From a virus (Duplodnaviria > Heunggongvirae > Uroviricota > Caudoviricetes), in IMG/VR virus record IMGVR_UViG_3300042991_000632, positions 1 to 27,035 of that record: a stretch of 27,035 nucleotides of DNA; one strand, written 5' to 3'. Positions 23,488 to 23,615 of the stretch are shown here, piece by piece. The position numbers and the translations under genes were made by a program. The notes under the pieces are model-generated. The model saw nothing but the letters and a program-made list of their open reading frames with translations, made no database searches and was not told where the DNA came from. Position 1 is the stretch's first letter. Each line of letters begins with the position of its first letter.

Positions 23488-23615
23488 GGTGTTGTACGCA
23501 GATGATGGGAATGCGACTTGATCGAGAAGTGAACAGCGAAGAACCCCTAACGTGGGTGAAGCGGAATAGCAATGTACGACAAGCAGATACGTTGGTTCAA
23601 TTCCAATCAATACCA
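23488..23615 (+). ncRNA. tRNA-like RNA with expanded (intron-like) anticodon arm; isotype unassigned
   Basis: Acceptor GGTGTTG/CAATACC + A; T8A9; D arm CGCA/TGCG; T arm GTTGG-TTCAATT-CCAAT; anticodon stem CTTG(A)TCG/CGACAAG enclosing 52 nt; no encoded CCA. Confidence 0.65.

Follow-up and report, generated by a model that had tools for sequence, protein, structure and literature searches.

The window studied here comprises the first 27 kb (27,035 nucleotides, nt) of a 148-kb IMG/VR phage record, IMGVR_UViG_3300042991_000632 (G000), for which CheckV estimates a completeness of 45%. On its plus strand, to which all RNA features of the window described below belong, positions 23488 to 23615 form a 128-nt element with the shape of a tRNA, whose anticodon arm is extended around a 52-nt insert. 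Our analysis indicates that this element is probably a non-decoding, tRNA-derived small RNA, in other words a natural "tRNA scaffold", and that its insert is likely a functional cargo kept by selection. We read it as non-decoding because the insert is as conserved as the tRNA-like body, and because the would-be anticodon differs between close relatives. The cargo would most likely be a protein-docking site. The element lies in a 600-nt gap between a gene for a 331-residue protein (22341-23336) and one for a 168-residue protein (23938-24444), and a homologue of rIIA begins at 24775, on the basis of which we regard the phage as a large T4-like phage.

Direct reading of the element reveals a seven-base-pair (bp) acceptor stem, GGTGTTG/CAATACC with one G-U pair, formed by positions 23488-23494 and 23608-23614. 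T8 and A9 are followed by a D arm with its GG (23497-23515), the T arm GTTGG-TTCAATT-CCAAT occupies 23591-23607, and the discriminator A at 23615 is followed by CGA, so that no CCA is encoded. Hence, the tRNA hallmarks U8, G18G19, T54-T55-C56-A58, G53-C61 and A73 are all present. The canonical 5-bp anticodon stem with a 7-nt loop and a conserved anticodon is not. Instead, an extended "anticodon" arm spans 23517-23583, in which CTTG-A-TCG (23517-23524) pairs with CGA-CAAG (23577-23583) to give 4 + 3 bp around the insert (23525-23576). A first-pass annotation, made from the sequence alone, had described the boundaries, the arms, the extended stem and the missing CCA in exactly this way. It had also seen a second anticodon-like 7-nt loop within the insert, and this part did not hold: relatives have a 4-bp stem with a tetraloop at this place, which is not a conserved anticodon mimic.

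Taken alone, the window copy is unconvincing, and it is the comparative data that decide. ARAGORN makes no call on it in either the default or the intron mode. A call appears only when the threshold is lowered to 90%, at which the 148 kb yield 7 hits, so that such a call by itself is no better than chance; at 80% there are 224 hits, many of them false. One default intron-mode call elsewhere in the window, a "tRNA-Met" with a 229-nt intron at 17544-17865, is spurious, as it overlaps a coding sequence (17505-17825) and a terminator hairpin. Rfam returns nothing for the window copy at its gathering score, and only the 3' half scores at all against the tRNA model RF00005 (15.7 bits). Thus, a routine match of the window copy to a known tRNA or transfer-messenger RNA (tmRNA) model, which the first-pass annotation had named as evidence against its reading, was not obtained. 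Without constraints, the minimum free energy (MFE) fold does not give a cloverleaf (z = -0.97). On the other hand, a strict scan of both strands of the 148 kb that required a perfect 7-bp acceptor stem together with a perfect 5-bp T arm and a T-loop gave just two hits; both have ACGTTCTTT upstream, a string that occurs 7 times in 296 kb, and ACGAA downstream. Furthermore, the orthologue on contig L003 does pass the Rfam tRNA model: it scores 32.7 bits, where 29 are required, with a 54-nt insertion in the anticodon loop.

Homologous contigs were retrieved through homologues of the 331-aa protein, and nhmmer identified the 128-nt module on four of them, L003, L039, L041 and L061 (E-values of 1e-17 to 1e-20). 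These contigs stem from different studies and are not assembly duplicates of one sample; habitats with relatives include caves, sediment and wastewater. Contigs from four DNA sequencing runs, which were examined as well, contributed only two sequence variants, X5 and X3, which come from two public runs and are independent. Across the four metagenomic phage contigs and these two read-derived variants the nucleotide identity of the module is 76-90%, compared with 55-62% for the flanking protein; against L003, the whole unit shows 76% nucleotide identity over 318 nt, and the flanking protein there 55%. A distant homologue, on contig L050, scores 30 bits with our model R1, which was built in this analysis and whose E-values are rough.

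The differences between these sequences respect the proposed structure. In the five-sequence alignment A3, 97% of the cells in the proposed helices are paired, whereas sliding the partners lowers this to 35-54%; in five pairs, both sides have changed. Two of these lie in the T stem (105-119, U-A to C-G, and 106-118, U-A to A-U), one in the extended stem (36-91, C-G to U-A, in L003 and L061), one in the inner hairpin of the insert (60-65, C-G to U-A) and one in the D region. The acceptor and T stems and the extended arm are paired in 100% of the cells, and every acceptor-stem substitution in A3 is a change to or from a wobble pair. Additional compensation comes from the read-derived variants, X5 at 106-118 together with G-U to G-C changes, and X3 at 105-119. 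In L050, in turn, the flipped pairs are 3-70 of the acceptor and three in the extended stem (ATTG-T-CTG/CAG-CAAT), and the architecture stays the same. The insert is no less constrained than the frame, with 37 of its 52 columns invariant against 40 of 61. Together, the two strict-scan hits with their shared leader and trailer, the homologue E-values, the pairing and the double changes argue that the element is more than a chance cloverleaf, and that it is real and under selection. The first-pass annotation would have abandoned its reading if the element were not transcribed and its arms not conserved in relatives; the frame is in fact kept with compensatory changes.

The insert itself contains a hairpin that is not shared by all homologues. 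L050 and L055 share the frame and the extended stem, here around a loop of just 19-20 nt that lacks the inner hairpin. The L050 loop reads AGA-CGGUAAUACCAAUGUA, and its ends reappear in the window as AGA ... CGGAAUAGCAAUGUA. In the subgroup to which the window copy belongs, AGA is followed by an extra hairpin (23536-23562 in the window; GC GAAGAA CCCC .. GGG TGAA GC), in which a purine-rich internal loop separates a 2-bp helix from a 4-bp helix that is capped by a tetraloop. The 2-bp helix is made of a G-C pair and of pair 50-74, which is C-G, U-A or U-G. The internal loop resembles a kink-turn (k-turn): the 10-nt 5' strand, GCGAAGAACC, matches in every letter the bulged strand of Kt-7 of Haloarcula marismortui 23S rRNA (PMC4382518), and the insert could form the G-A and A-G pairs beside the 4-bp helix. 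The opposite strands differ, being GGGUGAAGC in the insert and GGGGAGCC in Kt-7. In a k-turn, a 3-nt bulge precedes tandem sheared G-A and A-G pairs that lie between a C helix and an NC helix, and the non-bulged strand carries no additional nucleotide. In the insert, the bulged strand is that of Kt-7 and the flanking helices covary, but the non-bulged strand has an extra A, and we treat the k-turn as no more than a lead. Two pairings that would involve the insert or its arm were considered and rejected: GUUCUUU of the leader could pair with GAAGAAC of the insert in sequences of the window type but not in L050, and a pairing of the arm loop with the terminator loop shows no conservation.

Two aspects that escaped the first-pass annotation put the element into a broader context: it is the first part of a longer RNA unit that is conserved, and one relative has a real tRNA in the corresponding slot. 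The unit appears to extend over about 285 nt from promoter to terminator, with the tRNA-shaped element as its first module. It is preceded by the intrinsic terminator of the upstream 331-aa gene (23358-23398; a 13-bp stem, a 9-nt loop and a T run), with which weak Rfam terminator-type matches align, and which had been seen in the first pass. The dual promoters proposed at the same time were reduced to one. A single phage-type motif, TGCAAT-N16-CGTA (23435-23460), followed by TATATAAT (up to 23468), is present, and a sigma-70 scan found no promoter upstream on the plus strand. L003, L041, L061 and L024 have a similar motif ahead of the unit, and the motif presumably acts as a promoter.

Between this motif and the element, 4 nt ahead of the tRNA-like 5' end, lies a conserved 5' leader, ACGTTCTTT (23475-23483). 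A leader of the GTTCTTT(A/G)A type is found 3-8 nt before every tRNA-type 5' end seen, namely those of L003, L017, L018, L024, L050, L057, L067 and a second unit of G000 described below; before the tmRNA of L067 it takes the form GTTCATTAA. Since it also stands before internal modules that lack a promoter of their own (L017, L018), the leader looks like an RNA-level processing signal and not like part of the promoter.

Directly after the discriminator begins what we refer to as the core RNA (23616-23706, or up to 23759 with its terminator), which contains CGAAAAACCCAACCG, is found in about 23 phage lineages and matches no Rfam family. Its length ranges from about 140 to more than 450 nt among these lineages. 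The core starts with CGA(A/G)AAA(A/C)CCAACCG, which forms a long-range helix with CGGC(A/U)(A/C)UGG (CCAACCG ... CGGCAAUGGUU; 23624-23630 with 23658-23666 in the window). A hairpin (23669-23674 with 23700-23705) supports the core by covariation, as its five stem sequences all pair: ATACAG/CTGTAT, GCACTG/CAGTGT, TGGCAG/CTGTCA, ATCCAG/CTGGAT and GCACGG/CCGTGT. The unit ends with a terminator (23707-23759; a 12-bp stem, a 22-nt loop and a T run), of whose loop 21 of the 22 nt are kept in L003 and L038. An open reading frame (ORF) of 10 codons within the core (23651-23683) was rejected as coding, because it overlaps a covarying helix and relatives retain neither its start nor its stop.

In about 12 of the roughly 23 lineages the core is preceded by a T arm and an acceptor stem of the tRNA type, and in about 11 by a short 5' hairpin, which is built from the leader GUUCUUUAA and UUUAAGAAG. 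The tRNA-type modules in the slot moreover belong to several unrelated kinds. Besides the window type they include the 126-nt type of L024 and L057, a module without an anticodon arm in L021, and those of L055, L056 and L018. Two tRNA-shaped modules stand in tandem at 2250-2420 of L018, and one module followed by a second leader motif is found at 4440-4689 of L017. As these modules are spaced only by the leader motif, the arrangement suggests cassette-like arrays.

The most informative occupant is found in L067 (IMGVR_UViG_3300028030_000005), a 97.6-kb record with an estimated completeness of 94%. Its reverse strand contains, at 2520-3230, a tRNA-Ile(GAU), the core RNA, a tmRNA (80 bits; tag GNNSNKSRFIVHKMNTSTELIAA) and a tRNA-Met, none of which has an encoded CCA. 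The tRNA-Ile(GAU) is canonical (72.5 bits with Rfam) and adjoins the shared ACGAGAAAACCAACCG core. Because a canonical tRNA adjoins the same core, the arrangement indicates that the place of the window element is a genuine tRNA slot within a stable-RNA cluster, and the missing CCA would be normal for this group of phages.

G000 itself has a second tRNA-shaped unit of 161 nt, on the minus strand at 72441-72601 (L064 942-1102). It combines a perfect acceptor stem, GATTGGG/CCCAATC, with the T arm GCAGG-TTCGAAT-CCTGC, the leader ACGTTCTTTAATTAT and the trailer ACGAA. About 130 nt of other structure take the place of the D and anticodon region, and the unit is followed by a trailing RNA of about 140 nt, which differs from the core RNA, and a terminator. 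The second unit has no Rfam match.

How might such an RNA be made and used? Since the module retains the acceptor, D and T arms and can fold into the L-shape, it is likely to be handled by the tRNA maturation machinery. The 5' part of the primary transcript of about 285 nt would fold into the tRNA L-shape, after which RNase P would remove a leader of about 12-15 nt. A cut of the RNase Z type after A73 would free the module and at the same time fix the 5' end of the core RNA, and CCA would be added after transcription, either by the host enzyme or by the CCA-adding domain of an 1814-aa protein of the phage itself. The tRNA frame would provide stability and correct ends, and the conserved, purine-rich 52-nt insert with its k-turn-like hairpin would be the working part, probably as a site on which a protein docks. 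Two precedents make this processing plausible. In the engineered tRNA scaffold of Ponchon and Dardel the acceptor, T and D arms are likewise kept and the anticodon stem-loop is the insertion site for a cargo; the design relies on recognition by cellular processing factors and on stability, and in bacteria such scaffolds, with the cargo placed in the anticodon stem, undergo processing and are stable (PMC3753655). Likewise, RNase P cleaves the tRNA-like module of YrlA, and CCA is added to it (PMC4201824). The engineered scaffold is man-made, whereas the phage element is natural and conserved, and its processing and stability would follow by analogy.

A more general version of this view, which we offer tentatively, is that the tRNA frame is a general phage chassis. 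Its slots would hold a tRNA, a tmRNA or a cargo frame, would be cut by the host tRNA maturation enzymes and would be swapped like cassettes, and in the present case a docking cargo of the k-turn type would recruit a host or phage protein early in infection.

The main rival to a working cargo is that the tRNA-like fold is pure punctuation or a stabiliser, serving only as a processing signal and/or as 5' protection for the core RNA, so that the released module has no function. The observations on the slot speak for it: a canonical tRNA-Ile takes this place in L067, the place is elsewhere taken by unrelated modules (L024, L057, L055, L056, L018) or by a simple 5' hairpin, and the core invariably starts at the nucleotide after the discriminator. 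A mere handle, however, does not need a 52-nt insert that is as invariant as the one described above, nor a loop sequence shared with the distant L050 (AGA..CGG(A/U)AAUA..CAAUGUA), and the second unit of G000 is followed by another downstream RNA. We therefore consider this explanation unlikely, although it is the strongest of the alternatives.

It is also conceivable, but improbable, that the element is a decoy or sponge for a factor that recognises tRNAs, such as a host anticodon nuclease, a modifying enzyme or a tRNA-directed defence, with the altered arm making it uncleavable. Elbow and acceptor features are intact, the gene belongs to the early region and adjoins rIIA, and related phages carry large sets of tRNAs (30 in the contig of the nearest relative), which makes a tRNA-directed conflict plausible. 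Nevertheless, known anticodon nucleases recognise the anticodon loop, and this is what the element lacks. In addition, neither its neighbourhood nor the relatives show a link to a defence system, and half of the related lineages have no tRNA-like module at all. The first-pass annotation had named anticodon nucleases, T-box and synthetase binding as decoy targets, and no observation of the present analysis points to any of them.

The first-pass annotation had left the choice between such a non-decoding RNA and an intron-containing tRNA that needs a protein splicing route. In the latter, an intervening sequence of 42-50 nt at position 37/38 would be removed by an endonuclease and a ligase, leaving a 14-nt variable region. 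The question comes down to two folds. In model A, CUUG pairs with the invariant distal CAAG, followed by a one-nucleotide bulge and three further bp. In model B, the one used by ARAGORN, ACUUG pairs with the proximal CAAGU to give a 7-nt loop (U33, G37), a 42-nt "intron" at 37/38 and an unstructured 14-nt variable region. Model B has some support: the default intron mode of ARAGORN calls L003 a tRNA-Ala(UGC) and L061 a tRNA-Thr(UGU), both with a 42-nt intron at 37/38, U33 and a purine at 37 are kept, and in constrained folding the two models are equal in L003 and L061. In the window copy, L041 and L039, however, model A is better by 5-10 kcal/mol, and RNAfold returns it for the window when only the acceptor and T arms are fixed. 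Its stem is paired throughout with a compensated pair, versus 84% pairing for model B, which shows no compensation and requires a bulge in the window copy. Moreover, the anticodons implied by model B are CGA in the window, UGC in L003, UGU in L061 and CGU in L041 and X5, that is, they vary among close orthologues whose acceptor stems are identical; there is no G3-U70 pair for alanine and no structured long arm for serine, and position 33 would be a C in L050. Exons are expected to be more conserved than an intron, and here the "intron" is the best conserved part. For these reasons, namely pairing, stability, the architecture of L050, the variable model-B anticodons and the conserved insert, we favour model A.

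Comparison with known intron-containing tRNAs leads to the same view. They share with the element the extra sequence in the anticodon arm, and one fold even places it at 37/38. In contrast to bacterial group I introns, the 42-52 nt are far too few, as the first-pass annotation had rightly noted, and the bulge-helix-bulge geometry of archaeal introns is not seen; Rfam gives no intron or ribozyme match for these 42-52 nt. RtcB and a splicing endonuclease of the EndA type (PF01139, PF01974), which the first-pass annotation had suggested looking for, were not found in the 148 kb, which represent about 45% of the genome. Of the two possibilities it had raised, the intron-containing tRNA is thus not supported, in view of varying anticodons and an uncompensated stem, and we consider it very improbable; the non-decoding tRNA-like RNA is favoured by a covarying frame, a conserved insert and the absence of a conserved anticodon loop.

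A relationship to Y RNAs, with the insert docking a protein of the Ro60/Rsr type and the element being a circularly permuted analogue of YrlA, is highly improbable. The idea arises because YrlA joins a tRNA-like domain to a protein-binding helix and occurs in phages (Chen et al. 2014, PMC4201824). However, YrlA ends in the Ro-binding stem and its acceptor-like stem is closed, while the phage RNA ends at the acceptor stem. Furthermore, no gene with a TROVE domain (PF05731) was found in the 148 kb, and the Rsr motif GNCGAAN0-1G has no match in the alignment, where the window reads AGCGAAG and the relatives read AGUGAAG. Finally, a decayed pseudo-tRNA or chance cloverleaf, or a coding role as part of a 119-aa ORF (23376-23735), is barely credible: the failure with ARAGORN and Rfam at normal thresholds and the ease with which relaxed ARAGORN settings yield false hits would fit it, but conservation far exceeds that of the flanking protein, the helices show compensatory changes, and the ORF has no Pfam or PHROG match and is broken by indels of 16 nt and 1 nt relative to L003.

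Several points weigh against our preferred reading of a scaffold with a selected cargo. First, the window copy fails the standard detectors and its MFE fold lacks the cloverleaf. Secondly, the covariation derives from five sequences and two read-derived variants, that is, from few independent lineages; since L003 and L061 share both distinguishing compensated pairs (36-91 and 105-119), independent compensation events are few, and X5 has C-A at 36-91 unless the bulge shifts. Thirdly, the D stem has just two invariant pairs and an ambiguous register, and the ACUUG/proximal CAAGU pairing is isoenergetic in L003 and L061. Fourthly, the extra A on the non-bulged strand of the insert falls between the sheared pairs and the C helix. 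It should also be noted that the sequencing runs listed for the record include no RNA run.

Of the RNAs described before, the small stable RNAs of T4 are the closest in kind. Phage T4 rnaC (species 1, 139 nt) and rnaD (species 2) are small non-coding RNAs of a phage of the same general type, produced from a tRNA-type transcription unit, and like rnaC the present element is a phage-encoded, non-decoding RNA with tRNA-like terminal elements in a stable-RNA unit. The rnaC sequence has a perfect T arm (CCGGG-TTCGAAT-CCCGG) at its end, after a long non-tRNA centre, and rnaD starts right after tRNA-Arg, an arrangement that recalls the core RNA, whose start directly adjoins the tRNA-like module. In rnaC the acceptor-like strands pair imperfectly, whereas the present element has the complete cloverleaf and a defined site of insertion. 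The resemblance is one of kind: in the T4 region model R1 gives no hit and the core-RNA profiles reach E = 0.73 with nhmmer, and homology of the core RNA to rnaD, suggested to the eye by short shared strings (ACCG-UAAGUC, AGCAGAAAC), was rejected on that value. The role of rnaC and rnaD is still unknown (PMC3014915, PMC9697503).

A tmRNA also has a tRNA-like frame in which the anticodon arm is replaced by a long helix with other functions, and a true tmRNA is present in the L067 cluster. Unlike tmRNA, the phage element has a full D stem, a U-A pair at 3-70 in place of G3-U70 and no tag reading frame, and neither ARAGORN (-m) nor Rfam gives a tmRNA match for it. By the tests applied, the element is thus not a tmRNA, not a Y RNA of the YrlA type and not an intron-containing tRNA. 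The present analysis adds that the module is fused directly to a downstream RNA that is conserved, that a true tRNA, unrelated tRNA-shaped modules and a hairpin alternate in one slot, and that the cargo is k-turn-like.

With respect to the genomic surroundings, the 331-aa protein encoded upstream is widespread among metagenomic phages (108 matches) and has four invariant cysteines, which form a zinc ribbon. Its AlphaFold model has a mean predicted local distance difference test score (pLDDT) of 83, and Foldseek searches of PDB and AFDB recover the zinc ribbon alone and give no functional lead; Pfam, NCBIfam and PHROGs were uninformative. In L003 (1665-2111), L005 (2342-2704) and L007 (4143-4484) a small gene for a GNAT acetyltransferase lies between the 331-aa gene and the RNA unit, and no such gene is present at the corresponding place in the window.

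The 1814-aa protein mentioned above is encoded on the minus strand of G000 at 126550-131994 (L066 151-5595) and has PolyA_pol, PolyA_pol_RNAbd and tRNA_NucTran2_2 domains. A GNAT domain at about residues 1181-1278 is followed by a complete region resembling class-II CCA-adding enzymes (1429-1801), and the first 1180 residues or so have no Pfam match.

The rIIA search returned a single relative, L002 (record G002), with 62% identity, which has the core RNA and lacks the tRNA-like module. Its 102-kb contig contains 30 tRNA genes in the region of 77-99 kb, and the 148 kb of G000 contain none, so that the tRNA cluster of G000 is probably located in the missing half of the genome. Searches for the element outside the retrieved contigs gave no result: the locus has no blastn match among 50,697 deposited phage genomes, neither the T arm with acceptor nor the insert signature was found in IMG/VR as an exact pattern, and the insert signature was not found in 185,579 bacterial and archaeal genomes either. 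Single-protein IMG/VR searches with both flanking genes and literature searches for a description of the tRNA-shaped RNA also returned nothing.

To our knowledge, no function has been assigned to the tRNA-like stable RNAs of T4 in fifty years. The locus described here provides a comparative handle on RNAs of this type, since one and the same slot is filled by a true tRNA, by unrelated tRNA-shaped RNAs or by a hairpin, with a cargo that is under purifying selection. If the tRNA frame indeed serves phages as a natural scaffold for the expression, processing and stability of small effector RNAs, the annotation of large phages would be systematically blind to a class of RNA genes that do not pass standard tRNA finders. 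In that case, the conserved inserts would offer an immediate set of candidates for RNA modules that bind proteins or act in regulation, and the engineered tRNA scaffold would have a natural precedent.

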